NCBI GenBank assembly: GCA_041649135.1
Contig: JBAZNQ010000002.1
Location: 143,702 to 207,701 of the forward strand
Source of the DNA: Patescibacteria group bacterium
Lineage (GTDB): Bacteria; Patescibacteriota; Kazan-3B-28
Reading direction: 5' to 3'
Length of the DNA: 64,000 nt
The notes beneath the pieces are model-generated. The model was not told where the DNA came from. It did not search any database and saw nothing but the letters and a program-made list of their open reading frames with translations. A program made the position numbers and the translations under genes. Of the stretch, positions 4,625-60,921 are shown in pieces. Numbering within the stretch: position 1 is the first letter of the stretch; every line of letters begins with the position of its first letter.

Positions 4625-4780
4625 GTCATTCCCGCCCCCGAGCGGGAATCCAGAAAAGAATAAAAACATTTTTCTGTTTCTATCTGGATTCTCTGGTTCC
4701 GTCCTTCCCTCGTTGAGCTTCCTCCGTCGCTAAGGCTATGGAGGACTCTGACGGAGGACTAACGCAAGCCAGAGAATGAC
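4625..4780. repeat. MITE/REP-like palindromic element copy (GTCATTCCCGC..GCGGGAATCCAGA hairpin, internal ATCCAGAAAAGAA..TTCTATCTGGAT palindrome, right TIR AGAGAATGAC)
   Basis: Terminal inverted repeats GTCATTC / GAATGAC and internal hairpins seen directly; member of a family with at least 17 copies in this window. Confidence 0.6.
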
Positions 4781-4802
4781 AATAAAATATCAAGAAGGAT
4801 TT

Positions 4803-5267
4803 ATGGAAAAGACGTTAGTTGCACTAAAACCCGATGCTGTTCGCAAGGGTTTGCAGGATGAAATTAAAAATCGGTTGACTGCCACTGGGCTGAAAATCGT
4901 AGCTGAAAAAGAGATGCAGGTTGATGCCACTTTTGCAAGTGAACACTATTCCGATCTAGGTATTCGCAAAGGTGAAGATGTAAAACGCCGAATGGTCACC
5001 TTCTTGTCGTCTGGTCCAGTTATCACCATGATTATTGAAGGTGAAAATGCTATTGAGGAAGTCAGACGGATTGTTGGCAAAACCTTACCTGCCGATGCTG
5101 ATGTCGGCACAATCCGTGGCGATCTTGGTGACAGGGAAGAAAGTTACGCGAAAGCTGATGAAGCAGACAGAGCCGTTGAAAATCTAATTCACGCTTCCGA
5201 TGCTCCAGAAACGGCCGCCGCCGAAATCAAACTCTGGTTTCCAGAGCTGGATAGTCGCGAGTGGTGA
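4803..5267 (+). CDS. ndk: Nucleoside diphosphate kinase
   Basis: TLVALKPDAVRKGL, SSGPVITMIIEGENAIEEVRRIVGKT, GTIRGDLG and NLIHASD (catalytic His) match the Ndk family. AGGA sits 8 nt upstream of the ATG at 4803. The track start at 4776 lies inside the MITE right TIR (gaATGac) and is probably not the real start. Confidence 0.85.
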   Translation: MEKTLVALKPDAVRKGLQDEIKNRLTATGLKIVAEKEMQVDATFASEHYSDLGIRKGEDVKRRMVTFLSSGPVITMIIEGENAIEEVRRIVGKTLPADADVGTIRGDLGDREESYAKADEADRAVENLIHASDAPETAAAEIKLWFPELDSREW

Positions 5268-5470
5268 GTCACGAGTTGTAAGTAGCGAGTGGCAGCGAGT
5301 AGGACTCCTTTTACTTGCGAAGCCCCACATAACTCACAAGAGCGTAGAATGGTCATCCTGAACGGAGCGTTAGCGAAGTTGAAGGATCTAGGCGATAGCC
5401 GTTTTGCTAACCTTGTTCACCTACCGATGGACGGGTCAGTTCGTCCAGATGCATCCAAAATCTTCTCTCT

Positions 5471-5561
5471 CGTCATTCCCGACCTGATCGGGAATCCAGA
5501 AAAGAATAAAAACAGTTTTTTCTTTTTCTGTACAGATTCTCCAATCAAGTTGGAGAATGAC
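5471..5561. repeat. MITE/REP-like palindromic element copy
   Basis: cGTCATTCCCGACCTGATCGGGAATCCAGAAAAGAATAAAAAC...TTGGAGAATGACag; the TIRs and hairpin are visible directly. Confidence 0.6.
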
Positions 5562-5702
5562 AGACAAAAGTAACCCAAAATGACCAGTCACCACGTTGCG
5601 GCGGAGCGCAACAACGTTGTAACGCCGGTCTAATTTTCCACTTCCACAAAGAAAAATGCCACCGCAACGATTTTGCGGTGGCTTGTATTGACGAACCATA
5701 GA

Positions 5703-6131
5703 TCAGCCAGATAGTTGGGAACATTCATCTCTCTGAAATTGAATACACCGGTTGATCATCTCGTCCGTAGCTGCTCTCATTTCAGGATCATTCTCCCATA
5801 AACCTCCACCCGAGTTCAGATAGCGGTATAACAGAGTCAATTCCTCTGCGGTTACCATGTCAACTACGCAGGTGCTAACCCTCTTCAGAATAAGAGTTCG
5901 ATTCTCCTGCCAGTGTCTTCGGCAAACTCCCCTCAAAAACCACTGACAAAGTAGTGATTCTGCCAGAAAGTCTACCGCCACTAACAAAAACGAATAATCC
6001 TCTGATGGCCGTCGTGCAATGTATTTGTACACGAGAGGCATGTTGCAAACTACCTCACGGAGCAGCCACCCGCCAATGAGGCACAACACTACTAACGCTA
6101 GGAGTGTATCAAGGTTCATTGAATTTGCCAC
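5703..6131 (-). CDS. Hypothetical Cys-rich protein with an N-terminal hydrophobic segment (142 aa)
   Basis: Only the ORF plus an N-terminal TM-like stretch (LALVVLCLIGGWLL). It sits in a repeat-rich region and has no recognisable family. Confidence 0.25.
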   Translation of the reverse strand: MANSMNLDTLLALVVLCLIGGWLLREVVCNMPLVYKYIARRPSEDYSFLLVAVDFLAESLLCQWFLRGVCRRHWQENRTLILKRVSTCVVDMVTAEELTLLYRYLNSGGGLWENDPEMRAATDEMINRCIQFQRDECSQLSG

Positions 6132-6290
6132 CTCCCTTTTGATGGCTTCAATCTAACTGCTATATCTCCCCCAGTCAACCCCTGTGCCCCCGTTCCTTCC
6201 CCATTGCCGAATCCTCGTAGACCATTCATAGCCCATAGGGCGAAGTAGGGCCGAATTGCTGAATTGTCCACCGTTCCCCTCTTTTCTCTC

Positions 6291-6660
6291 GTCATTCTGG
6301 TAAGCGAAACGCATCCAGAATCGTATAATTGACGCAATTTACTCCATTGTGTCATTCTGGTATTCCCGTCATTCCCGTGCCCGCCTGCAACGATGCCCGC
6401 CAGAAACGCTGTATCTACTGCGGACTGGTAGCACTTCGGGCAGGAAAACGGGAATCCAAACCCCGTCCGTCATTCCCGCGTAGGCGGGAATCCAGACAGA
6501 AACAAGAACATTTTTCTTTTTATTTCTGGGTCCCCGATGTCGGATGGCTTTGCCTCCGGCTCGAGGATGACAACACGGGGAATATGGCATCATTTAATAA
6601 GATTCTGGGCACCTGCCCGAAATGCTACGCATAGCGTTGCAGGCGGGAGCCAGAATGACG
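6291..6660. repeat. Composite cluster of MITE/REP-like elements; 6366..6571 is about 97% identical to 26121..26327
   Basis: Multiple GTCATTCYGG / CCAGAATGAC units; the long internal unit is duplicated elsewhere in the window. Track ORFs 6329..6634 and 6369..6593 are artefacts of the repeat. Confidence 0.6.
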
Positions 6661-6894
6661 ATAGACAGGGTCATGTCTCCTGCTCCACCACTACTCAATT
6701 GCCTGTCCACCTTGGATTGGCTCAATTGTTGAATCGCCGAATTCCCCCTCCCAACCACTATTGGCTTGTGGCTGGCCTCCGGTGGCTAGTGACTGTGGAT
6801 AACTCCCTATCCCCTATCTTATTTTTTACAAATATACGTTTTTGTGGTGTAATTTAATTACGAGCAACCTTTTACGAGAGTAATTCTCGTAAAT

Positions 6895-7245
6895 AGTCCG
6901 TCCTGTGCTCCTTGATAACAAACGATCTCTTAGTACCTTGCTAAGGGAGAGTCAAATGGCCACAGGACCAAAGCTGACTCTTCCAAGTGCTGGAAGGGTT
7001 TTATGTACTTTAACCGGTCGCGCACCGGCACATCAATAGGTTTCCCATCCCAGCACCGCCTTATGGACAGGCGAGTTCCTCGCCTGTCCCCTTTCTTGAA
7101 TATCACTTTCCACAACATTCCTCCGGTATCCTGCCGGAGGACTTTTAAATTCCCAACAAAGAACCTCACACACAACATCAGCAGCAGAACACTGGAAGAA
7201 GGTCATTTGTTGTCCCTCAATGTCATTACATTGAGGTTTTTTTAT
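6895..7245 (+). ncRNA. Candidate structured non-coding RNA (several strong hairpins) ending in a rho-independent terminator
   Basis: Hairpins GTCCTGTG..CACAGGAC, GGACAGGCGAG-ttcc-CTCGCCTGTCC and CCTCCGG-tatcctg-CCGGAGG, then the terminal CCTCAATGTCATTACATTGAGG followed by TTTTTTTATTT. No convincing ORF, and no match to RNase P, SRP or 6S motifs that I could see. Confidence 0.2.
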
Positions 7246-7261
7246 TTACAACATAAAAAAT

Positions 7262-7850
7262 AAAATTTTCAAGATGTTACAACGTTGTTGCGCTCACCGC
7301 AACAACGTTGTTGCGGTCAAATAATACAGTCCTAGAGCCAATCTCATTTTTTAATATACCAAAAAACCATTATTACACCATTTTTACCACCGCCATGTCA
7401 AAACGCTCCGCCGCAACATGACGGTTGCGGACGACCGCAACACCGTTGCGGTCGTCACTACCTACCGCAACAACGTTGTTGCGGAACATACTATAAAAAA
7501 GTAGGCTACCATATTATATATTTATATATAGGCATTTTGTGATGATCAAAACACGAACATAAAAAACAAGGGGGTTGCAACGTTGTTGCGGTACCTGTTA
7601 CAATGTTGTTGTAACACACCTACAACGTTGTTGCGCTCCGCCGCAACGTTGCGGCGGGGGACTACAATATGCTTACAGTTGCTACAATTATTGCTATTAT
7701 CGTTTTCTTTTACGGCAGTCGCTAGACGCCGACCGCAACAACGTTGCGCTCGACCTTTTCGCTACAGTAGCGAAAAAAGGCGGGGGACCTACAACGTCGT
7801 TGCGGAGCGCAACAACGTTGTTGCGCTCGCCAAAATGTACTAAAATCAAA
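7262..7850. repeat. Dense array (at least 12 units) of CGCAAC(N)GTTGCG palindromes, consensus GCAACAACGTTGTTGC, upstream of a MerR-like regulator; a possible multi-operator region
   Basis: Examples: acaacgttgttgcgctcaccgcaacaacgttgttgcgg, ccgcaacatgacggttgcgg, accgcaacaccgttgcggt, cgcaacaacgttgttgcgctcgcc. Two more units lie at 5590-5690. Spacing is irregular with no unique spacers, so it is not CRISPR-like. Confidence 0.6.
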
Positions 7851-7853
7851 TTA

Positions 7854-8405
7854 ATGGAAACCGAAACCATCCAAGCAGAATCAACTACTACCTCGGCGCC
7901 TCAAGCCGAAGTTACTAGCCCGACCAAAGGCTCTGCTTATTCGTTAACTGAAGTCGCCAAATTTCTCAATGTCAATGAAAGTACTCTTCGCAACTGGGAG
8001 AAACGCTTTGGCGAATACCTCTCCAATTACCGTAATCAGTACAACCACCGGCTATTTACCGATAGTGATATTGCCATGCTGGAACGGGTTAAATACCTGT
8101 TGGAATCGAATCTCTTTACCGTTGCTGGCGTCAAACACATGCTCTCCAATAAAGGAGAGATTTCAGGAGCAGGGGAGAGTGTTCAAACTCAAGCCATCAT
8201 GACCCAACAGGAGAAAGAAGCAGAGGAAGAATACCGTCAGAAACTATTGTTCGCTCTCAACTCTCTTGGCTCTGAAATCCATTCTCTTCGCCGCGAAGTC
8301 AGGGAAGACCTCCGCGGGAGCCTAAAGGCTGAATTAGATCACCTAAAACTCTTACTTTTCCCACCCGAACAACCCAAGAAGAACCCTTGGTATAAGTGGT
8401 GGTAG
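7854..8405 (+). CDS. MerR-family HTH transcriptional regulator with a C-terminal coiled coil
   Basis: YSLTEVAKFLNVNESTLRNWEKRFG...LFTDSDIAMLERVKYLL matches the MerR-type HTH plus dimerisation helix. The track ORF extends upstream through the palindrome array to 7575; the ATG at 7854 (METETIQ) is the more plausible start. Confidence 0.6.
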   Translation: METETIQAESTTTSAPQAEVTSPTKGSAYSLTEVAKFLNVNESTLRNWEKRFGEYLSNYRNQYNHRLFTDSDIAMLERVKYLLESNLFTVAGVKHMLSNKGEISGAGESVQTQAIMTQQEKEAEEEYRQKLLFALNSLGSEIHSLRREVREDLRGSLKAELDHLKLLLFPPEQPKKNPWYKWW

Positions 8406-8530
8406 GATTTTCGGTATCAGATCACAAACCGGAATGGGGGATAACTCCGTTTTTGAAATTTGATACCGGTAATACTACAAAACCGGCTAGGATTATTGTT
8501 CTTTTATATCTGATATCGGGAGAGGGCAAG

Positions 8531-8776
8531 ATGGGCAGAAATGTCATTAGCCAACTGGATGGGCTGCACCAGTACGGCGAAGCATTACGCCGTCTAGTCC
8601 GAGAATGTGGACGCACCAAAGCAGAGGCCATACAAATGCTCTGGTATGACCGAGATGCACTATTATCAGCTGGGGTTACTTCGATGCAACTGCTGGAGCT
8701 TGAAACGGCCATCGACATAGAAGAACAGGAAGGCAGACTGAAACCGCAACAATGCCAATTTGGCAGTAGTGAATAG
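8531..8776 (+). CDS. Small hypothetical protein (81 aa)
   Basis: ATG at 8531 preceded by GGGAGAGGG. Product MGRNVISQLDGLHQYGEALRRLVRECGRTKAEAIQMLWYDRDALL... Confidence 0.35.
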   Translation: MGRNVISQLDGLHQYGEALRRLVRECGRTKAEAIQMLWYDRDALLSAGVTSMQLLELETAIDIEEQEGRLKPQQCQFGSSE

Positions 8777-8795
8777 ACCTAAGGAGGTTTTCCAG

Positions 8796-9074
8796 ATGAT
8801 ACCAAATGGACAACCCTGCCAAATGGCAGATGGGAGGGTTGGTATTTGTCCACTTTGTGGGCACATTGAAGAGTTGCATCCCGTACGGATCCAACTCTTT
8901 GAAAGGGGTCTGGATTTGCGACCGGTACCATGTGGAGATGCAAAACAAGCAGTTTGTATTTGCCCTAAGTGCGGTGCTCGTAGCTCAACTCTGGGGGTTC
9001 TGATCAACGAAGATATCTTCATTATCGACAAGAACTCCCATGCGCCCCGTGGTCCGATCGTCAGACAGCCATAG
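8796..9074 (+). CDS. Small Cys-rich (zinc-ribbon-like) protein (92 aa)
   Basis: Strong RBS (TAAGGAGG) 8 nt upstream of the ATG at 8796; CPLCGH...CGDAKQAVCICPKCG gives two CxxC pairs; followed by a clear terminator. Confidence 0.45.
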   Translation: MIPNGQPCQMADGRVGICPLCGHIEELHPVRIQLFERGLDLRPVPCGDAKQAVCICPKCGARSSTLGVLINEDIFIIDKNSHAPRGPIVRQP

Positions 9075-9113
9075 GCGGTTCTGCTACACCAGCAGTCCGC
9101 CTATTTTATTTTT
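9071..9113 (+). terminator. Rho-independent terminator
   Basis: ATAGGCGG..loop..CCGCCTAT followed by TTTATTTTTCC. Confidence 0.5.
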
Positions 9114-9219
9114 CCTTACGTCATGTCATCCTTGAGGTCGCCGTGGCTACCCAAGGATCTATAATAACCTCATGAACCAATCGTGAAGTTTGTCATGAAT
9201 TTAGCCGCACAGATTTAAA

Positions 9220-10644
9220 ATGACCAAACAGAAAACTATTCGGTCTGGAAGCGCAAAACCAACTGTTTTTGTCGCGATGAGTGGGGGAGTCGACTCCTCT
9301 GTCGCCGCCGCCCTGTTACAACAACAGGGTTTTAACGTAGTCGGCGTGTTTATGAAGAACTGGTCGGACGCTTCAGATGTCGGAGGTGGCCTTACTTATT
9401 GCACCGCCGAACAAGACTTTTTGGATATGCGAGCAGTCTGTCAGCACTTGGATATTCCTTACTACACTTTCAATTTTGAAACAGAATACAAAAAACGAGT
9501 GCTAGATTACTTTTTTGCCGAATATAAAGCCGGTCGGACTCCCAATCCGGATGTCATGTGTAATAAAGAAGTCAAATTCGACCTCTTTCTCAAAAAATGT
9601 TTGGCTCTGGGAGCAGATTTTATTGCTACTGGGCATTACGCCCAGCGAGTCGCGAGTCGCGAGTCGCGAGTAATGAGTGACAACCCAATCGTCATTCCGG
9701 CCTCCGAGCCGGAATCCAGACAAAAAAATCCCTCTCTAGCCTCTCGCGACTCGTCACTCGCGACTCATCACTTACTCCTGAAAGGAGCAGACCCCATCAA
9801 AGATCAAACTTATTTTCTCTACAACTTAACCCAAGACCAGCTAGCGAAAACGCTTTTTCCGGTCGGTCAGTACCCCAAAAGCCAAGTTCGCGCCCTCGCT
9901 CGCAAATTTAAACTGCCAACTGCTACCAAAAAAGACAGTCAGGGAATTTGTTTTATCGGTCCCGTAGACGTTAAAGAATTTTTAAAAACTGTGATTAAAA
10001 CCAAAACTGGTAAAATTGTCAATCAAGAGGGGAAAATGCTTGGTACTCACGAAGGGGCTTGGTTTTACACCATTGGTCAGCGTCGGGTGGAAGGTCTAGC
10101 CGGTCAACCCGAGCCTTTGTATGTCATTGATACGGATATTAAGAAAAATCTGGTAATTGTTGGCCCAGATTCCGCCACCTATGGCAAAGGGGTAATTTTA
10201 GAAAATCTGCATTGGGTAGAACCAAGCTATCAAAATTGTCATCCCCGACCTGATCGGGGATCCAGACAGAAAAAGAAAATAGATTCCCGCCTTCGCGGGA
10301 ATGACGGAGAAGAGAACGGGAATGACGCATGGGATTTACAAGCTAAACCCAGATATGGCCCAGAGGTCTATGGGGGGAAATTGGTATTAGAACAAGTCGC
10401 GAGTAACGGGTCGCGAGGGACTAGTAGCAAAGCAGTCGTCATTCCGGCCCCGCCTGCCCGCCTTTGGGGGGAGCCGGAATCCAGACAAAAAAAGAGCCCT
10501 CGTCTCCCGTCTCTCGTCTCTCACGATTCCTACTCCTTCATCTTCGACCACCCCCAGCGCGCTCTTACTCGCGGTCAATCACTGGTCATCTACGACGAAG
10601 ACATCTGTCTCGGCGGGGGTGTTATTGAAAAAGTCATCAAATAA
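9220..10644 (+). CDS. mnmA: tRNA-specific 2-thiouridylase MnmA, carrying three in-frame palindromic-element insertions
   Basis: VFVAMSGGVDSSVAAALL (PP-loop), YKAGRTPNPDVMCNKEVKF, IATGHY, KDQTYFLY, QGICFIG and a CLGGGVIE C-terminus all align with MnmA. The protein is 474 aa against about 365 for typical MnmA; the extra segments coincide with repeat-element copies. Confidence 0.85.
   Translation: MTKQKTIRSGSAKPTVFVAMSGGVDSSVAAALLQQQGFNVVGVFMKNWSDASDVGGGLTYCTAEQDFLDMRAVCQHLDIPYYTFNFETEYKKRVLDYFFAEYKAGRTPNPDVMCNKEVKFDLFLKKCLALGADFIATGHYAQRVASRESRVMSDNPIVIPASEPESRQKNPSLASRDSSLATHHLLLKGADPIKDQTYFLYNLTQDQLAKTLFPVGQYPKSQVRALARKFKLPTATKKDSQGICFIGPVDVKEFLKTVIKTKTGKIVNQEGKMLGTHEGAWFYTIGQRRVEGLAGQPEPLYVIDTDIKKNLVIVGPDSATYGKGVILENLHWVEPSYQNCHPRPDRGSRQKKKIDSRLRGNDGEENGNDAWDLQAKPRYGPEVYGGKLVLEQVASNGSRGTSSKAVVIPAPPARLWGEPESRQKKSPRLPSLVSHDSYSFIFDHPQRALTRGQSLVIYDEDICLGGGVIEKVIK
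9691..9720. repeat. MITE/REP-like hairpin core inserted in-frame in mnmA (insertion 1, encoding ..NPIVIPASEPESRQKNP..)
   Basis: GTCATTCCGGCCTCCGAGCCGGAATCCAGA, flanked by GTCGCGA heptamer repeats (9649-9672 and an inverted copy at 9738-9770). Confidence 0.6.
10238..10295. repeat. MITE/REP-like element inserted in-frame in mnmA (insertion 2, encoding ..CHPRPDRGSRQKKK..)
   Basis: GTCATCCCCGACCTGATCGGGGATCCAGACAGAAAAAG...CGCGGGAATGACGG. Confidence 0.6.
10438..10492. repeat. MITE/REP-like element inserted in-frame in mnmA (insertion 3, encoding ..VVIPAPPARLWGEPESRQKK..)
   Basis: GTCATTCCGGCCCCGCCTGCCCGCCTTTGGGGGGAGCCGGAATCCAGACAAAAAAAG. Confidence 0.6.
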
Positions 10645-10732
10645 TCTTGATTATCCATTTTCAGAGCCAACTTCTTGCTAATATTCAGTTTTTGTGTAAA
10701 ACTGCAATCAAGCTTCCGCAAGGAGGATGCAC

Positions 10733-11233
10733 ATGGAACCCTGTGGCAATAGGTGTACAGTTGCTGGACCTGCTGGGTTGATGCCAGTCCCGTCGTCAAT
10801 TGACGTTCAGGGCGAAAGGACTGTGTTGGCCATCGAGGACGGAAACGGCTTTGAAAAGGCGGTGTGCCCTAGCGCCTTTTGCCGGACATTATCGGGCGAG
10901 GTGGTGGCGGTTCTGGTCAGAGGCGACACGTTCTACATTGCTGATGGCAATACCGATATCACCAACATAGATTCTCCCCGCCAAAGGATGGTTTATGTGA
11001 TAGATAGGGGCCTGTTGAGTGAAACAAAAGGTATCGTCGAGATCTTTGCTCGATCATGCTCTGTCGTGGATGTCGACGGGGACATAACTCTCGCAAAGGG
11101 TCTGCCTCAACCGCTTTTCCTAATTGGAGCTTATCCCCCCAACCATCCGAGGTATCTACCGTGGCGGTCTACGGCAGGACGTGACAAAAGCCATCGTTCC
11201 TCGGGACCACTCCCATACCCCAGCACAGCCTAA
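10733..11233 (+). CDS. Hypothetical protein (166 aa), locally GC-rich
   Basis: AAGGAGG RBS 6 nt upstream of the ATG at 10733 (the track start at 10727 is too close to the RBS); followed by a clean terminator at 11251-11284. Confidence 0.4.
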   Translation: MEPCGNRCTVAGPAGLMPVPSSIDVQGERTVLAIEDGNGFEKAVCPSAFCRTLSGEVVAVLVRGDTFYIADGNTDITNIDSPRQRMVYVIDRGLLSETKGIVEIFARSCSVVDVDGDITLAKGLPQPLFLIGAYPPNHPRYLPWRSTAGRDKSHRSSGPLPYPSTA

Positions 11234-11250
11234 CTTACACCACTAACATA

Positions 11251-11284
11251 AGACCCCAGTTCAACCTGGGGTCTGTCTTTTGTT
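11251..11284 (+). terminator. Rho-independent terminator
   Basis: AGACCCCAG-ttcaac-CTGGGGTCT followed by GTCTTTTGTT. Confidence 0.55.
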
Positions 11285-11322
11285 AGGAAAATTTGTAGGG
11301 GATAACCCCTATTCCCCCCACC

Positions 11323-11393
11323 GTCATTCTAGCAAACCCCTCCTTCCGTCATTCTGGAGTCTTTTGCCATACGGCAGAATTCCCAGAATGACG
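11323..11393. repeat. MITE/REP-like palindromic element copy
   Basis: GTCATTCTAGC...GTCATTCTGGAG...CCCAGAATGACG. Confidence 0.5.
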
Positions 11394-11758
11394 AAGGCGG
11401 ACGGATCCCTAGCCCTCGCAGACCCTTCGGAGTTCTGCTGGACAGCAGAACGAAGTAGAAGAGCTGACCCCTCCCTGATCCCTCTCCCCCAACTATTCAC
11501 TATTCACCATTCACTTTTCACTTTCCCCCTAGTAGCTATCGGCTTCTCCCCTAACCATTCACCATTCACTTTTCACTTTCCCCAAGGCCTCTTGCTTTTT
11601 TTGGGGTTTTCTGGGTATAATCTTCAGGTAAAAAAGGACTTAATTGACCGTGAATTACCCTCACAAGTCAACTATCAATTCTGCGCTCCCAGAGCGGTTT
11701 TTTGGCAGTTTGTGTCACAAGAAATCGATATATTACGTTATAACTTATGTAAGGCAAA

Positions 11759-12391: not shown

Positions 12392-12583
12392 CGTCATCCC
12401 GTGTTCTGCACTGTCATCCCGAACACTCCGTATTGTCATCCTGAACCCTGGCTGCGTCCCGCACCCGCGGGCAAGCTTGATTCAGGATCCAGTCTCATTC
12501 CGTCCGTCATTCCTGCGGAGGCAGGAATCCAGTTTCTCCCTAACAAACAAATAAAATAGATTCCGGACTAAACCCGGAATGAC
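12392..12583. repeat. Cluster of MITE/REP-like palindromic units between the sigma-factor gene and the downstream membrane-protein gene
   Basis: cGTCATCCCGTG, TGTCATCCCGAAC, TGTCATCCTGAACC..GATTCAGGATCC, CGTCATTCCTGCGGAGGCAGGAATCCAG, CCGGAATGACAAC. Confidence 0.55.
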
Positions 12584-18582: not shown

Positions 18583-18669
18583 GTCATTCCGGCCTACGAG
18601 CCGGAATCCAGAAAAGAACAGAAATGTTGGTTGTCTCTTTGCTAGATCCTGAAATGAATTCAGGATGAC
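18583..18669. repeat. MITE/REP-like palindromic element copy
   Basis: cGTCATTCCGGCCTACGAGCCGGAATCCAGAAAAGAACAGAAATG...CCTGAAATGAATTCAGGATGACac. Confidence 0.6.
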
Positions 18670-21498: not shown

Positions 21499-21611
21499 AA
21501 TCACGAATTCAGAATTATGAATCAAGAGGGGACGGGAAAATGGGGCAGAATTATGAATTTGGAATTATGAATCAAGGGAGGGTAAAAATCAGGAATCAGA
21601 AATCATGAATT

Positions 21612-21995
21612 ATGGGGGAACAGGGGAAGATTAAGAGTTTTACCGACCTGAACGCTTGGCAAGAGGGGCATAAATTGGTTATCATGATATATGTCCTGAC
21701 TAAGACTTTCCCTGATGGGGAGACTTACGGACTTGTTAGTCAGATGCAACGATGCGCAGTGTCTATTACTTCCAATCTGGCTGAAGGCTTTAGCCGACAA
21801 TCATACAGAGAGAAGGTTCAGTTTTACTCTATATCACAGGGCTCCGTAACTGAATTACAAAACCAACTCCTAGTTGCTCGTGATGTTGGGCATGTCTCCC
21901 AATCACAATTTGAGCAACTTGCCAGTCAAGTCATCACTGTACATAAATTGGTTAGTGGGCTGATAAAAAGCTCCAAGTCATTCGTCCGTCCATAA
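21612..21995 (+). CDS. Four-helix-bundle protein of the '23S rRNA intervening-sequence protein' family (TIGR02436-like)
   Basis: AWQEGHKLVIMIYVLTKTFPDGETYGLVSQMQRCAVSITSNLAEGFSRQSYREKVQFYSISQGSVTEL is the family signature. Flanked by inverted AATTATGAATCA repeats. Confidence 0.75.
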   Translation: MGEQGKIKSFTDLNAWQEGHKLVIMIYVLTKTFPDGETYGLVSQMQRCAVSITSNLAEGFSRQSYREKVQFYSISQGSVTELQNQLLVARDVGHVSQSQFEQLASQVITVHKLVSGLIKSSKSFVRP

Positions 21996-22029
21996 TTCTT
22001 AATTCATTATTCATAATTCACTTATTCCT

Positions 22030-26120: not shown

Positions 26121-26327
26121 GTCATTCCCGCGCCCGCCTGCAACGATGCCCGCCAGAAACGCTGTATCTACTGCGGACTGGTAGCACTTCGGGCAGGAAA
26201 ACGGGAATCCAGACCCCGTCCGTCATTCCCGCGTAGGCGGGAATCCAGACAGAAACAAGAACATTTTTCTTTTTATTTCTGGATCCCCGACGTCGGATGG
26301 CTTTGCCTCCGGCTCGAGGATGACAAA
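26121..26327. repeat. Composite MITE/REP-like element, about 97% identical to 6366..6571
   Basis: GTCATTCCCGCGCCCGCCTGCAACGATGCCCGCCAGAAACGCTGTATCTACTGCGGACTGG...GGATCCCCGACGTCGGATGGCTTTGCCTCCGGCTCGAGGATGACAA. Track ORF 26122..26355 is an artefact of the repeat. Confidence 0.65.
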
Positions 26328-26639: not shown

Positions 26640-26723
26640 GTCATTCCGGACTTGTTCCGGAATCTAGACATAAAAAGAAACATTTTTGTTCTTGTCTGGA
26701 TTCTGAAATAAATTCAGAATGAC
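26640..26723. repeat. MITE/REP-like palindromic element copy
   Basis: tGTCATTCCGGACTTGTTCCGGAATCTAGACATAAAAAGAAACATTTTTG...TGAAATAAATTCAGAATGACg. Confidence 0.6.
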
Positions 26724-29052: not shown

Positions 29053-29194
29053 GTCATCCTCTGGCTTGCGTTAGTCCTCCGTAGCTCAACGAGCGAAGGA
29101 CGGAACCAGGGGATCCAGAAAAGAAAAGGAAAATGTTTTTGTTTCTGGCTAGATCCCCGATGTCGGATGGCTTCGCCTCCGGCTCGAGGATGAC
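29053..29194. repeat. MITE/REP-like palindromic element copy with the CCTCCGTAGCTCAACGAGCGAAGGACGG module
   Basis: GTCATCCTCTGG...GGATCCAGAAAAGAAAAGGAAAATG...GATCCCCGATGTCGGATGGCTTCGCCTCCGGCTCGAGGATGACAA. Its right end is nearly identical to the right end of the 6291..6660 and 26121..26327 copies. Confidence 0.6.
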
Positions 29195-38600: not shown

Positions 38601-38970
38601 GGGGCTGTCTAGCTTCGACGGGGAACCTTGATTTCTAGATATTGCATGTCGTTTGCGCTCGAGAAACGTAAAATAACGAGCAAACTTACAAATGCCAACG
38701 CATTTGGCGGTCGTCTTCAGACCGCAACCGCAGTAGCCTAATTGTTACTGCCATCGTCATCTGACTCGCTTAACGGCCGGAACCGACGGTGTAACTTTAG
38801 TTAAGCTGCTGCAATTACGGTCGCTGTAATTGTTTAAGACTAAAGCGGCTTGCCTTGCTGTTGCTTTGTTGGCTTGAGGATAGCAGGGGACACCAATCAA
38901 ACCAACTACACATGTAGTAATGTCTAGACGTCGTTTCTCGGACGGGGGTGCGAATCCCCCCAGCTCCACC
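38601..38970 (+). ncRNA. ssrA: tmRNA (transfer-messenger RNA, SsrA)
   Basis: 5' end GGGGCTGTCTAGCTTCGACGGGG matches the E. coli GGGGCUGAUUCUGGAUUCGACGGG. 3' end GGACGGGGGTGCGAATCCCCCAGCTCCACCA matches the E. coli GGACGCGGGUUCAACUCCCGCCAGCUCCACCA. An internal tag reading frame ends ..AFGGRLQTATAVA followed by TAA. smpB is located 1 kb downstream. Confidence 0.8.
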
Positions 38971-38989
38971 AACCTTCGCCTCCTTAATT

Positions 38990-40041: not shown

Positions 40042-40518
40042 CTACCGCTTCACTCTCATCTTCCGAGCAATTTCTCGCTCGGTTTCTTTGCGTTTTAGAC
40101 TTTCTCGTTTATCAAACTTTTTCTTTCCCTTAGCCAGCGCCAGCTCTACTTTGATGTGATTACGGGTGCTGTAAATTTTGGTCGGGATTAAACTCAAACC
40201 CTGTTCTTGAAGTTTGCTAGTTAACTGAATCAGTTCTTTTTTATGTAATAAAAGTTTGCGTGGTCGAGTCGGTTCGTAACTTTGTTGTTTCGTTGACCAA
40301 CCCGCAGAGCTACGCCCAGTACTGCTGGCGGGGGAGTAGGGAGCAATATGCAGTTTATGTAGCCACGCCTCGCCACCGACAATTTTGACATAACTATCGG
40401 CCAAGTTGGCTTGTCCAGCTCTAACTGACTTTACTTCGCCACCGCTCAATACCAACCCCGCCTCAAAAGTTTCGAGGAGGTGATAGTTAAAATACGCTTG
40501 CCGGTTTAAAATTGTCAT
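40042..40518 (-). CDS. smpB: SsrA-binding protein SmpB
   Basis: FEAGLVLSGGEVKSVRAGQANLADSYV, PTRPRKLLLHKKEL and KVELALAKGKKKFDKRE align with SmpB. There is a roughly 10-aa Ser/Gly-rich insertion (SPASSTGRSSAGWSTKQQ) relative to E. coli SmpB. Confidence 0.85.
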   Translation of the reverse strand: MTILNRQAYFNYHLLETFEAGLVLSGGEVKSVRAGQANLADSYVKIVGGEAWLHKLHIAPYSPASSTGRSSAGWSTKQQSYEPTRPRKLLLHKKELIQLTSKLQEQGLSLIPTKIYSTRNHIKVELALAKGKKKFDKRESLKRKETEREIARKMRVKR

Positions 40519-40777: not shown

Positions 40778-40833
40778 AACAAAAAAGAAACACTTTCTGT
40801 TTCTATCTGGATTCCCGCCTGCGCGGGAATGAC
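40778..40833. repeat. Partial MITE/REP-like element (internal palindrome plus right hairpin)
   Basis: AAAAAAGAAACACTTTCTGTTTCTATCTGGATTCCCGCCTGCGCGGGAATGACG. Confidence 0.5.
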
Positions 40834-51177: not shown

Positions 51178-51210
51178 GTCATTCTGGTAATTCTGCTGTA
51201 CAGCAGAAGC
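51178..51210. repeat. MITE/REP-like hairpin core
   Basis: GTCATTCTGGTAATTCTGCTGTACAGCAGAAGCATCCAGAATC. Confidence 0.5.
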
Positions 51211-51272
51211 ATCCAGAATCTTATAAAGAAATATCTAGTTTTTCTCACCTGCCAATCTACTAACCATCTCTT

Positions 51273-54662: not shown

Positions 54663-55853
54663 ATGGACCAACTCTTAAACCAACTACCATCACCCAATCT
54701 TCGCCACATTAATTGGCGGGGGATGGGATTGGCTCTTGTCGGCTTGATCGTGGCTGGTGGACTCTTAGTTTATTCTGGTGGGCTAGATCAGCTTTCTCAT
54801 ATCTTTGGTTCCAAGGCTGGGACTGACCAAACTCGGGTTTTGGCTGGTGTTGCTAATTTAACTGGTAGTGTTGGTGCTGAAAGCTGGGTGATCGGCACTT
54901 TGCCGGCCAGTTTCGACAATACTGCCGCTTTTGCCAACTCTGCCGATGTGCCGGGCTTCATGATACCGGAATCAAGTGCTACCGGATTTATTATGCCAGT
55001 CGTTCCTGACGCCGATGCTGATGCTGATGCTGATGCTGATGCTGATGCTGATGCTGATGCTGATGTCGCATTAATCTCTCCCAGCTATCGCTACCTCTCT
55101 CCAGCGCTTGATTTAGGTGACGGTCAACTCGAACTTTCCCAAATCGACATCTATGCTTATCTGCCAACCTCTACTGCGGTTGAGCTTGGTTATCGAGCTA
55201 GTGATGACTTGATGACACTTACCACCGCGACTATTCAATCATTCTCGGAAATTAATTTTGTCCCAGTTGCTGATGTAACTGATGTCCAAGTCGCTACTAT
55301 CTTAATGAGCCAATCAACGGGACGGTATTCCCAAGTCTCTGCTAATTTCTCCGCTTCTGGTGCTGAAAATCAGCCAGCAATTTATGGCTGGAAAATTCAA
55401 TATAGCGCTACGAGCACTACCGATGCAGACACGATCACCGACCTAACTGCCAATATTGATTCCACTACCGACAATACTATTACCATCGCTTATAGTGGCG
55501 GACCGGCTATTCCGACTGATGCCAAAATCGAGTTACTCGGTAGCGACATTGCTCTCAACCCGATGTATGGTCAAGACCAGCTTGACCTGACTTCTCACGA
55601 TGGTCAGTACACCTTTACTTTGTCTCTACCGACTGGCGCCTATACGATCATGGCTACTAGCGCCACTACCAAACCGATCATTGTTCCATTTATGCTGATC
55701 GCTGGTAAAGCCGCTAATATCGCTATTGGTGCCTTCGAATTGGCTCAAACTAGCTTCAATGACAGTCTGACTACCAATCCAGCCGACCTAAACCATGATG
55801 GGGTAGTTAACACTCTGGATGTCCAATTACTCTTTGAACAGTATGGTAAGTAA
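54663..55853 (+). CDS. Secreted or membrane-anchored protein with a (DA)n low-complexity tract and a C-terminal dockerin-like repeat
   Basis: N-terminal TM/signal; DADADADADADADADADADV encoded by (GATGCT)9; C-terminal ADLNHDGVVNTLDVQLLFEQYGK (dockerin-type Ca-binding segment). Confidence 0.65.
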   Translation: MDQLLNQLPSPNLRHINWRGMGLALVGLIVAGGLLVYSGGLDQLSHIFGSKAGTDQTRVLAGVANLTGSVGAESWVIGTLPASFDNTAAFANSADVPGFMIPESSATGFIMPVVPDADADADADADADADADADVALISPSYRYLSPALDLGDGQLELSQIDIYAYLPTSTAVELGYRASDDLMTLTTATIQSFSEINFVPVADVTDVQVATILMSQSTGRYSQVSANFSASGAENQPAIYGWKIQYSATSTTDADTITDLTANIDSTTDNTITIAYSGGPAIPTDAKIELLGSDIALNPMYGQDQLDLTSHDGQYTFTLSLPTGAYTIMATSATTKPIIVPFMLIAGKAANIAIGAFELAQTSFNDSLTTNPADLNHDGVVNTLDVQLLFEQYGK

Positions 55854-59711: not shown

Positions 59712-59787
59712 GGGCGATTAGCTCAGTTGGTAGAGCGCTACATTCGCATTGTAGAGGCCACCGGTTCGAATCCGGTATCGTCCACCA
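59712..59787 (+). tRNA. tRNA-Ala (anticodon CGC) with a G3:U70 identity pair
   Basis: GGGCGATTAGCTCAGTTGGTAGAGCGCTACATTCGCATTGTAGAGGCCACCGGTTCGAATCCGGTATCGTCCACCA. Confidence 0.8.
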
Positions 59788-59811
59788 CAAAAAACCGCTT
59801 TCGTTGAGACC

Positions 59812-60921
59812 GTGCGGGAAGCCATGATGAAAGCTGGCTATGGGCAATATACCGGCGAGTTCCATCGGTGGCTTACGTCGTACGACACGGAAGACCCGGC
59901 CGCGATGTTACAGTTGCGTCGGAGCGCTAAACTCATCCTGGACAACCTGTGCGAGTTTCGTGCTACCCTCTATGCCAAGGCAGTTGAGCACAAGGACACC
60001 TTAATGATTGCCCGGACTCACGGGCAGCTGGCTGAACCTGACAGTTTTGGCCGGCTCTTACTCGATTTCGTCGAAGCCTGCGACCAGGCTATTAGACGTC
60101 TCGAGTACATCATCGACAGCGAATTGAGCTTCGCCAAATTGTCTGGCGCTATCGGCAGCTACGCTGGTCTGGACCCAGAGCTGGAACGCGAGACTCTGCG
60201 AATACTCGACTTGGAACCCGTGCGGGTATCCACCCAAATCATGGCGCGCGATCGTCACTCTACCTACATGGATGAGCTGGCGACTATCGGCGGGACTCTT
60301 CAGAGGTTGGCTGAAACTCTGTGGGTGATGTCGCATGGACTGATTGCCGAAGTTCGGGAACCGCGTAAGGCCAAGCAGAAGGGCAGCTCGGCCATGCCAC
60401 AAAAGCGGAACCCGATTTGGCTGGAGCGGACTCGTGGTCTAGCTCGGCTTCTGCGTGGCTACGCGTCCAGCATGAAGGAGTCAATCGCCACACCAGAGTG
60501 TCGCGATATTTCCCAGTCGTGCGTCGAGCGAGTCGTCTTCCCAGATGCTACCAGCTTGGTCTACTATTTGCTGGAGAAATGGACCAAGGTTATCGAGGGG
60601 CTAGAAGTCTTCCCAGACACTATGGAAGAAAATCTCGCGAGAGCCTACGACACTTGGGCCGCCCAGCGAGTTAAGGTTGCCTTGACTGATGCCGGTGTCA
60701 ATCCGGAGCAGGTCTACGACCTCGTCCAAGACGCTTCGTTCAAGGCTATCGAGACTCGCCAGTCGCTGGCCGTGATTCTGCGAGACAGACCAATCGATCT
60801 TGGCAGGGTCTCTCCGAGCGTTGCTGAAGTCATCGGTCCAGAGAAGTTCAGCAAGCTGTTTGATCCTAAGGATTACATCAAGAACGGCATTGACGTAATC
60901 TACGAACGTTTCGCGGTGTAA
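59812..60921 (+). pseudogene. purB: Adenylosuccinate lyase (PurB / fumarate-lyase family) remnant lacking roughly the first 65-70 aa; GC-rich relative to its surroundings
   Basis: Family signature GSSAMPQKRNP at residue 195 of 369, plus ARTHGQLAEP. A full-length PurB has this signature at about residue 262-290, so the N-terminal domain is missing. The ORF begins 25 nt after tRNA-Ala. Confidence 0.5.

Follow-up and report, generated by a model that had tools for sequence, protein, structure and literature searches.

How can an enzyme of tRNA modification take up three long extra segments and keep its reading frame? The question is raised by mnmA, the gene for tRNA 2-thiouridine(34) synthase, in a 64,000-nucleotide stretch of a Patescibacteria genome (contig JBAZNQ010000002.1; hereafter the window), a bacterial sequence of ~46–47% GC that carries tRNAs, a tmRNA, and housekeeping genes. 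Comparison of this gene with its orthologues, together with dissection of the inserted DNA, leads us to read the segments as tolerated selfish or structural DNA that is lodged in a working mnmA and translated as surface loops, and not as designed domains, with a probability of roughly 0.78. Two kinds of palindrome make up the inserts: a short hairpin that fits the CGTC-1 type of repetitive extragenic palindrome (REP), and a longer hairpin whose stems are tandem heptamers.

A sequence-only reading of this DNA had described an MnmA longer than normal, with extra segments at three places, and both points held up against homologues. The open reading frame (ORF) encodes 474 aa, with variable segments at aa 142–185 (after TGHYA), 334–374 (after LHW), and 389–439 (before FIFDHP), here called sites 1, 2, and 3. 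Among 119 homologues, the base-state loops at these sites are 10, 11, and 8 aa long, versus 44, 41, and 51 aa in the window; the net insertions are therefore +34, +30, and +43 aa (102, 90, and 129 nt), which accounts for 474 aa against a base state of ~367 aa (474−107=367). The peptides quoted for the inserts are correct on translation, and the frame is intact across all three, with no stop or frameshift in 9220..10644; each insert is stop-free and a multiple of three in length.

The product retains the features of a working enzyme. All three MnmA domains match in Pfam (PF03054, PF20259, and PF20258), and the PDB entries 2hma and 2der are matched at E ~1e-89 in three separate stretches (q9–147, q182–316, and q433–471). 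The PP-loop SGGVDS (S21–S26), D111, C114, and C244 do not vary in either alignment of homologues (22 and 119 sequences); the last three are counterparts of the catalytic residues D99, C102, and C199 of E. coli MnmA (PMC5372745). In the E. coli enzyme, which binds RNA, a "variable segment" (187–215) closes over U34 (PMC5372745), and none of sites 1–3 coincides with it. The window protein is identical to P0001, named MnmA by NCBI, from a metagenome-assembled genome of a "Patescibacteria group bacterium", and occurs on two contigs (31 kb and 218 kb). Since the ORF is uninterrupted and the PP-loop, Asp, and Cys residues are invariant, mnmA appears, as far as its sequence can tell, to encode an enzyme that looks functional.

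An AlphaFold2 model built on the 119-sequence alignment places the inserts in the fold. Its core has a predicted local distance difference test score (pLDDT) above 90 and superimposes on 2hma, 2det, and 2deu with Foldseek template-modeling scores of 0.88–0.91 (target-normalized), and pLDDT falls below 50 (below 50–60) only at residues 149–176, 342–362, and 402–433. Strands flank each of the sites (E141–147 and E182–188; E321–332 and E370–376; E384–391 and E437–447). Site 1 belongs to the catalytic domain, and the C-terminal barrel holds the other two, site 2 where it begins and site 3 in its interior. The suggestion that alignment to relatives and to MnmA structures would map the segments to surface loops was thus borne out, the inserts falling in loops between β-strands. 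At the DNA level the inserts fold more stably than shuffled controls (z=−8.9, −3.2, and −4.5 for sites 1, 2, and 3). Each insert is a DNA palindrome and falls, in the model, at the tip of a β-hairpin or surface loop.

The architecture of the inserts is richer than one hairpin copy per segment, as had been supposed. The hairpins are real, and the repeated motif underlying them, GGRATCCAGACARAAA, has 16 matches in the window (≤2 mismatches) where 0.18 are expected; what had been overlooked is the outer heptamer palindromes and a REP dimer at site 2. At sites 1 and 3, a long imperfect hairpin, with a left stem of (GAGTCGC)n tandem heptamers and a right stem of (ACTCGYC)n, encloses the REP at its apex. 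REP hairpin and tail take up 39 of the 102 nt at site 1 and 57 of the 129 nt at site 3; the remainder is the outer heptamer-repeat hairpin. The left arm at site 1 pairs with 9736–9766 (inverted repeats I2 and I3), and over 55 nt the left half of site 1 is 78% identical to that of site 3 (direct repeat D1). Site 2 is built differently: between flanks of EPSYQN (6 aa) and AWDLQ (5 aa), which together make up the 11-aa base-state loop, lies a shortened form of the ~100-nt inverted REP pair that occurs six times between genes in the window, without the T-rich spacer half of the intergenic copies. The claim of three copies in one orientation therefore holds for the three plus-strand hairpins, but the gene contains four, the fourth on the minus strand. 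A shared frame had also been noted, and it extends over the REP tail only: this is read TCC AGA CAR AAA (SRQK) at all three sites, whereas the 5′ stem is read GTC-ATT-CCG (VIP) at sites 1 and 3 and TGT-CAT-CCC (CHP) at site 2.

A CGTC REP is defined by an unpaired CGTC or TGTC (or CCTC) tag, an 8–9 bp stem starting with AT, a loop of 4–5 nt, and a CCA tail; dimers are frequent, intragenic units exist, and exceptions in loop length are allowed (PMC3733652). The tag of the four mnmA hairpins is CGTC at 9690, 10437, and (minus strand) 10306, and TGTC at 10237; most intergenic copies in the window have CGTC or TGTC. Their stems (ATTCCGGC/GCCGGAAT, ATCCCCGA/TCGGGGAT, and ATTCCCGC/GCGGGAAT) comprise 8–10 bp with at most one mismatch. 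Loops of 4–5 nt occur at 10282–10306 (GAAG), at 10237–10275 (CCTGA), and in many intergenic copies (GTAG, GCAG); the loop is 6 nt at site 1 and 20–45 nt at site 3 and in about nine intergenic copies, where it holds further palindromes. The tail reads GGAAT-CCA-GAC at site 1, in the first copy of site 2 (2a), at site 3, and in most intergenic copies, and CTA in copy 2b; an A-rich run follows the CCA tail in the REPs of this lineage. Taken together, and some enlarged loops aside, the tag, the 8–9 bp stem from AT, the tail, and the occurrence as single units or inverted pairs fit a CGTC-1-type REP, as far as sequence comparison can place it. The enlarged loops of 20–45 nt are themselves palindromes (for example of the CGTAGC...GCGAAGG types).

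These hairpins are mainly residents of intergenic DNA, and the same modules were found between genes within the window. The window contains 28 [C/T]GTCATYC hairpins, 24 of which lie in the 28% that is non-coding (P=2e-10), with at least six inverted pairs; the four intragenic copies are all in mnmA. The REPs of ~110 kb of related loci are likewise mostly intergenic, and the few further copies there that count as "intragenic" are found at the ends of gene calls.

Di Nocera (2013) equates CGTC-1 with the dRS3 element of Neisseria and RPE-6 of Rickettsia conorii (PMC3733652). The peptides encoded by intragenic CGTC-1 copies in R. conorii include VIPAKAGI, CHSRESGNP, DSRFRGND, and the dimer SFLRKQES...LDSRFRGND (PMC3733652, supplement). 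The window peptides VIPA... and CHPRPDRGS...DSRLRGND are of the same types (VIPA..., CH.R...G.P, and DSRxRGND), a comparison made with the published peptides only. The family had been called unrelated to the Rickettsia elements; because its tag, stem, and tail, and the loop of many copies, have the CGTC-1 anatomy and the VIPA, CHPRPDRGS, and DSRLRGND peptide types match R. conorii, that statement was wrong. In-frame insertion is likewise not mainly a Rickettsia behavior, as had been assumed: REPs lying in frame, among them some within genes for tRNA pseudouridine synthases, have been documented in O. terrae, Thauera, Xanthomonas, and S. maltophilia.

When one genome per species was scanned for the exact hairpin pattern CGTCATTCCCGCNNNNGCGGGAATCCAG, at least 120 stretches (L010–L129) were returned, with listed matches from Proteobacteria (Neisseria lactamica and N. 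dentiae among them), Planctomycetes, Dehalococcoidia, Nitrospirae, Gemmatimonadetes, Brocadiia, Peribacteria, and others. Of the 150 copies listed, 71 are accompanied by an inverted partner at a distance of no more than 120 nt; GAAG, GAAA, GCAG, and similar sequences form the loops. The exact CGTC-1 hairpin with a CCAG tail also occurs in Sphingomonas, a very wide spread for a repeat with no known transposase. The idea that the pan-bacterial REP is commonly intragenic was rejected: 34 of the 150 listed copies lie in long stop-free spans, and the ten longest of these spans held no confirmed internal insertion. Five of the ten have a Pfam match, in each case with all matched domains 3′ of the REP, and five have none; most of the REP-bearing stop-free spans are probably long spurious ORFs of the kind that GC-rich genomes contain. 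A protein-database search with the 41-aa site 2 peptide yielded no candidate REP-decorated protein, and a search of the available literature found nothing relevant on REPs or in-frame palindromes in Patescibacteria.

The history of the inserts can be read from orthologues, whose DNA was taken from eight independent metagenomes. Synteny is conserved: a sigma-70 gene and a DUF5667 gene come after mnmA, and genes for RNase Y, an M16 peptidase, and NDK lie upstream. Comparison with sister genomes, proposed earlier as a check on presence or absence, was informative: in syntenic P0012, P0013, and P0014 all three sites are empty, and in P0005 sites 2 and 3 are. The remaining syntenic orthologues carry inserts at the same three places that differ in length and sequence, and MnmA ranges from 357 to 499 aa among nine sequenced orthologues. 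The segments are thus not ancient, conserved MnmA domains devoid of a repeat signature, as all the inserts in the eight syntenic orthologues are palindromic and some orthologues are empty.

(GAGTCGC)n outer stems recur at sites 1, 2, and 3 in orthologues; those at sites 1 and 2 of P0003 contain no REP at all, and the heptamer arms at site 3 hold three different REP fillings across orthologues. Since arms without REPs and varied fillings occur, the sequences indicate that the heptamer hairpin preceded REP entry, and that REPs probably came into its apex later and independently. Other orthologues have different heptamers or octamers at the same sites. Among more distant Patescibacteria, REP-type peptides (RHPELVSGS, IPKQVRNDG, CHPERSVAKSKDL, and DSRLRGND) appear at sites 1 and 2 of MnmA, and Firmicutes-like MnmA homologues lack such peptides. 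At site 3, filled alleles share junction residues and lack the KNRxW turn that is conserved in empty alleles; filled and empty alleles are nevertheless interleaved over the rest of the gene, by a neighbor-joining tree and by segment-wise DNA identities, a conflict that reflects either recombination between lineages or a poorly resolved tree.

A mechanism is proposed where palindromic repeats lodge at the codons for the tips of three surface β-hairpins or loops and would be translated, presumably neutrally, as extra hydrophilic and probably disordered loops. New palindromes would enter at the tips of existing hairpins; entry of this kind is suggested by the REP nested in the heptamer hairpin and by the palindromes nested in REP loops. 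Copying may be carried out by a hairpin-specific enzyme acting on single-stranded DNA, or may occur by gene conversion between copies. In the case of site 1, the REP may be a copy of that at site 3, because the two sites have homologous arms; it differs from the site 3 REP of orthologues P0004 and P0003 at 1 of 39 nt. A survival filter would then retain only copies whose length is a multiple of three, and only at structurally permissive turns. As the REP is open in five of six frames, it is mainly the length that must be a multiple of three, and the alternative frames of most inserts contain stops. Three permissive β-turns would thus act together with a landing-pad effect of the palindromes already present.

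Several observations weigh against this reading. The concentration of inserts in mnmA is awkward for it: the length-invariant neighbors RNase Y (514 aa) and M16 peptidase (423 aa), constant in four genomes, carry none. We infer mobility itself from copy number and patchy distribution of the sequences. The search for a transposase or RAYT-like gene (Y1 HUH, PF01797-like), which covered ~6% of the genome plus ~110 kb of relatives, found none among the Pfam-scanned ORFs of the window and none among the called genes of the related loci (L001–L009), and no dedicated transposase was found for CGTC REPs by Di Nocera (2013; PMC3733652). Sequence inspection showed no target-site duplication flanking the cleanly bounded 90-nt insert at site 2. 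The low pLDDT of the inserts may stem from absent co-variation instead of genuine disorder. Finally, conservation of the 39-nt REP is 97% between genomes that share only 72–78% identity in mnmA DNA, which pure junk would not predict unless gene conversion homogenizes the copies or arrival was recent; concerted evolution with genomic copies explains this conservation as well as exaptation does, and the two are equally good on this point.

The heptamer hairpin is not restricted to this gene or, it seems, to this phylum. (GAGTCGC) arrays have 13 matches in the window where 0.03 are expected, and the heptamer arms are 71% GC. Such an array is stop-free in all six frames and, because 3×7=21, encodes the same cyclic heptapeptide in every frame (ASRESRV, or LATRDSR from the other strand). 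Half (50%) of all heptamers are open in six frames, however, so this openness is a requirement and not a signature of GAGTCGC; the window heptamer arrays that contain stops are intergenic. A metagenome scan for (GAGTCGC)x3.4 returned at least 120 stretches; those listed have a median GC of 64.5%, which marks them as mostly non-Patescibacteria, many with a complementary right arm and many at contig ends. Seven of the ten long ORFs tested are real genes with an in-frame (GAGTCGC)n hairpin, encoding VASRESRV or LATRDSRLA: UvrA, DnaE (twice), the LeuRS editing domain, a GlpD-like oxidoreductase, NIF3, and a DinB-like polymerase. When UvrA and LeuRS are aligned with solved structures, the residues that the hairpin encodes fall in gaps. 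The search of the available literature found no paper that describes the GAGTCGC element, no bacterial paper that contains the sequence, and no description of heptamer-array stems as hairpins in frame inside conserved enzymes. These data suggest an apparently undescribed class of palindrome that may extend beyond Patescibacteria.

From this, a broader proposal can be drawn, which we regard as possible but doubtful: that heptamer-stem hairpins are ORF-compatible palindromes common to several phyla that settle at the β-hairpin tips of nucleic-acid enzymes, with MnmA, UvrA, DnaE, and LeuRS as hosts, and then become landing pads for REPs, which would enter at the hairpin apices. They would enter any gene in any frame and would soon be back in frame, as the gain or loss of one unit shifts the frame by one.

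The arms could instead have grown in place, by slippage of a heptamer seed followed by fold-back or template-switch copying of the arm, with REPs arriving later by gene conversion. Such growth would account for the different heptamers, (AGTATCA)n, (GAATCAA)n, and (CAGCAGGT)n, that the arms of different orthologues use at one site, for the abundance of varied heptamer arrays in the window, and for the fact that neither a transposase nor a target duplication is seen. Yet identical GAGTCGC hairpins occur at all three mnmA sites in several genomes, and their recurrence in other genes and in the many GC-rich metagenome stretches looks like the work of one spreading family; arms of 71% GC are also out of keeping with a genome of 46–47%. 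In-place growth is thus unlikely, although it deserves to be kept in mind.

Exaptation, in which basic, hydrophilic loops (SRQKNP, SRQKKKIDSRLRGND, and SRQKKSPR) aid the binding of tRNA or a partner and are kept by selection on the protein, would suit an RNA-binding enzyme such as MnmA. The site 3 insert is kept in frame in five orthologues although its flanking DNA is only ~65–72% identical, all the window inserts are oriented to encode Lys/Arg/Gln-rich and not Phe/Leu-rich peptides, and site 2 dispenses with the T-rich half of the intergenic spacer. Against this, the close orthologues P0012–P0014 work without any insert, and the peptides inserted at one site differ wholly between orthologues, such that the DNA palindrome is conserved and the peptide is not; the inserts are, moreover, modeled at low confidence. 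We therefore consider selection for the loops themselves improbable.

A role in the mRNA, with the palindromes as processing sites, stabilizers, or translational pause signals between the folding units of MnmA, appears very improbable. The predicted hairpins are strong, the inserts lie within or between structural units (catalytic domain, start of the C-terminal barrel, and barrel interior), and Di Nocera (2013; PMC3733652) argues that many REPs function as RNA. Across 20 inserts, however, there is no folding advantage for the sense strand, which leaves selection on mRNA structure unsupported: the antisense strand is at least as stable in 14 of the 20, with summed energies of −940 versus −853 kcal/mol (sense). 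Insert-free orthologues exist, and the inserted sequence varies between lineages.

Decay to a pseudogene or an artefact of a repeat-rich metagenome bin is barely credible: repeats do often break or mis-join assemblies of such metagenome-assembled genomes, and many heptamer matches lie at contig ends, but the 474 codons are open with all invariant residues present and inserts in multiples of three, the same protein stands on contigs of 31 kb and 218 kb, and eight orthologues from independent metagenomes behave alike at the same sites. Splicing, bypass, and an intein were set aside, as the inserts are stop-free multiples of three and, on reading of the sequence with no search aimed at these, resemble neither an intein nor take-off and landing sites.

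Tolerated palindromes in a working mnmA, the reading that we favor, can be set beside several known systems. RPE-1, a Rickettsia palindromic element, reportedly lies in frame in housekeeping genes, including truB, where it is said to be translated at sites compatible with the fold. It is an element of 100–150 bp with its own consensus and is confined to Rickettsia; to our knowledge, repeated insertion, in many lineages, into the same loops of a single enzyme has not been described for it. The mnmA inserts are like RPE-1 in behavior only, being in frame and at loops, and their sequences appear unrelated to it, going by the description of RPE-1 known to us. REPINs, for their part, are reportedly mobilized by RAYT transposases. 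The intergenic unit of the window resembles a REPIN in that it is an inverted REP doublet able to fold as one long hairpin, and a hairpin-specific enzyme of single-stranded DNA, as in the REPIN/RAYT system (GTAG superfamily), would fit entry at tips; in contrast to that system, no RAYT was found in the window or in L001–L009.

Abundant scattered heptamers, some with inverted partners and mostly intergenic, are known as cyanobacterial STRR sequences, the heptamer repeats of Beggiatoaceae, and miniature inverted-repeat transposable elements (MITEs) of the Nezha type, but hairpins of heptamer stems in frame within a conserved enzyme, as in the window, are not known to us from STRR and Nezha elements. 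Coxiella QMITEs, Neisseria Correia elements, and enterobacterial intragenic small mobile sequences are palindromic, MITE-like repeats that add peptide segments to ORFs; the sequences of these elements are different, their terminal inverted repeats are defined and often come with target duplications, and they show no nested architecture. No insertion sequence element was found within the window, and inverted ends are present at the inserts.

The closest match is the CGTC-1 family itself, whose members are mostly intergenic, often in inverted pairs, occasionally in frame inside genes, and without a linked transposase. The tag, the stem starting with AT, the loops of many copies (GAAG, GTAG, and GCAG), and the CCA tail agree, and the exact 28-mer pattern occurs in Neisseria lactamica and N. 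dentiae. The differences from described CGTC-1 REPs are a host among Patescibacteria (candidate phyla radiation, CPR), which is not among the five phyla of the 2013 survey (PMC3733652), a tail and spacer particular to this lineage (CCAGACAGAAA...), nested palindromes that enlarge the loops of several copies, and four hairpins at three sites of one gene, two of them nested in another type of palindrome. We thus take the hairpin, on sequence comparison, to be a known CGTC-1 REP kind (dRS3 and RPE-6) that behaves like its Rickettsia relatives, with the host lineage and host gene apparently new. Four features add to what was known: the nesting, the reuse of the same three loops across the phylum, the concentration in one gene, and the presence of the heptamer hairpin, in frame, in genes for repair, replication, and translation in unrelated bacteria.

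Table 1. Coordinates of mnmA, its insertions, and related palindromes (window numbering unless a locus is named)
Feature	Position	Strand	Remarks
mnmA ORF, tRNA 2-thiouridine(34) synthase, 474 aa	9220..10644	+	host of the three insertions; no stop, no frameshift
Site 1, composite palindrome	9645..9772	+	−62.1 kcal/mol; z=−8.9
Site 1, left arm	9645..9681	+	tandem heptamers (GCGAGTC)x3.9, then degenerate units; encodes ASRESRV; tandem repeat finder, period 7, 100% matches
Site 1, CGTC-type REP	9690..9728	+	CGTC tag, stem ATTCCGGC, loop, stem GCCGGAAT, CCA tail, A-run; encodes VIPASEPESRQK
Site 1, right arm	9736..9772	+	(CTCGCGA / CTCGTCA) heptamers complementary to left arm; encodes SRDSSLATH
Site 2, insertion	10237..10326	+	inverted REP pair (tags outward, tails inward) and partial extra copy; exactly 90 nt, 30 aa
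Site 2, REP a	10237..10275	+	TGTC tag, stem ATCCCCGA, loop CCTGA, stem, CCA tail, A-rich run; encodes CHPRPDRGSRQKK
Site 2, REP b	10282..10306	−	CGTC ATTCCCGC GAAG GCGGGAAT; sense-strand reading DSRLRGND; 8-bp stem, no mismatch
Site 2, partial duplicate of REP b stem and tag	10317..10327	−	CGGGAATGACG; direct repeat D13, 11/11 nt, spacing 21
Site 3, composite palindrome	10395..10525	+	−59.5 kcal/mol; z=−4.5
Site 3, left arm	10395..10424	+	decayed (GAGTCGC) heptamers; encodes ASNGSRG; perfect (GAGTCGC)n here in orthologues P0004 and P0006
Site 3, CGTC-type REP	10437..10493	+	stem and tail of site 1, loop 18 nt larger; encodes VIPAPPARLWGEPESRQK
Site 3, right arm	10497..10525	+	decayed (CTCGTCT) heptamers; tandem repeat finder, period 7, 10499–10522; pairing by folding
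REP-type hairpin with enlarged loop, intergenic	9126..9158	+	60 nt 5′ of the mnmA start codon
Complete intergenic element	26221..26325		REP, CCAGACAGAAAC, A/T-rich spacer, inverted REP
Other inverted pairs	5473–5560, 12507–12582, 18584–18668, 26641–26722, 29054–29193		
REPs with palindromic enlarged loops	6602–6658, 12436–12488, 26283–26323, 29054–29114, 29153–29193, 51179–51219; L004 9926–9981, 13774–13829		
Heptamer hairpins in frame in other genes	L172 (uvrA), L200 and L168 (dnaE), L155 (leuS), L189, L160, L199		GC-rich metagenome contigs

Further repeats lie elsewhere in the window. Heptamer arrays (GAATTAT)n and (AATCAGG)n at 21548–21610 are inverted partners of (CATAATT)n at 21991–22027, and the ORF at 21612–21995, a PF05635 "23S rRNA intervening sequence protein" (E 2e-34), is bracketed in a cargo-like manner by the resulting heptamer-stem hairpin (21548–22027); a PF05635 gene is found at the syntenic position in the related locus L008. 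An (AGTCGCG/AGTGGTG) array at 5253–5292 overlaps the 3′ end of the NDK gene (4776–5267), whose product has 163 aa in the window; of three related genomes, two have a product of 152 aa and one has a product of 176 aa. Ten copies of CTGATG at 55006–55065 encode a perfect (Asp-Ala)10 in a 396-aa ORF (54663–55853) with no Pfam match. A single REP stands at 40811–40832, just 3′ of a 793-aa ORF.

The stretches flanking mnmA without a Pfam-supported gene (5268–7574, 8406–9219, and 10645–11758) are unusually long; REPs and heptamer arrays are dense in them, and many ORFs on the two strands overlap one another. Between them, the MerR-type ORF at 7575–8405 has 276 aa, versus 184–199 aa in relatives, its start probably being mis-set. 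An adenylosuccinate-lyase-like ORF (59712–60921 region, GTG start at 59812) has a Lyase_1 match that sets in only at profile position 103, and it begins 25 nt after tRNA-Ala (59712–59787), its N-terminus being missing or its start mis-set. The tmRNA (tag ANAFGGRLQTATAVA) lies near smpB on the opposite strand (38601–38971 and 40042–40518).

The locus extends the CGTC-1 REP, so far without a transposase, to another deep bacterial lineage, its exact hairpin being common to many phyla. It also offers a natural experiment in the tolerance and gain of loops, with three turns of one enzyme that in related genomes are empty, filled by heptamer hairpins, or filled by such hairpins with a nested REP. 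The nesting places a testable constraint on the mechanism of CGTC REP insertion, with hairpin tips as the suggested point of entry. Palindromic inserts of this kind lengthen proteins and seed spurious "domains" in the annotation of metagenome-assembled genomes. The heptamer hairpins may represent a broader class of coding-compatible palindromes and, if the proposal that spans several phyla is true, selfish palindromes would have a general way to enlarge protein loops step by step.

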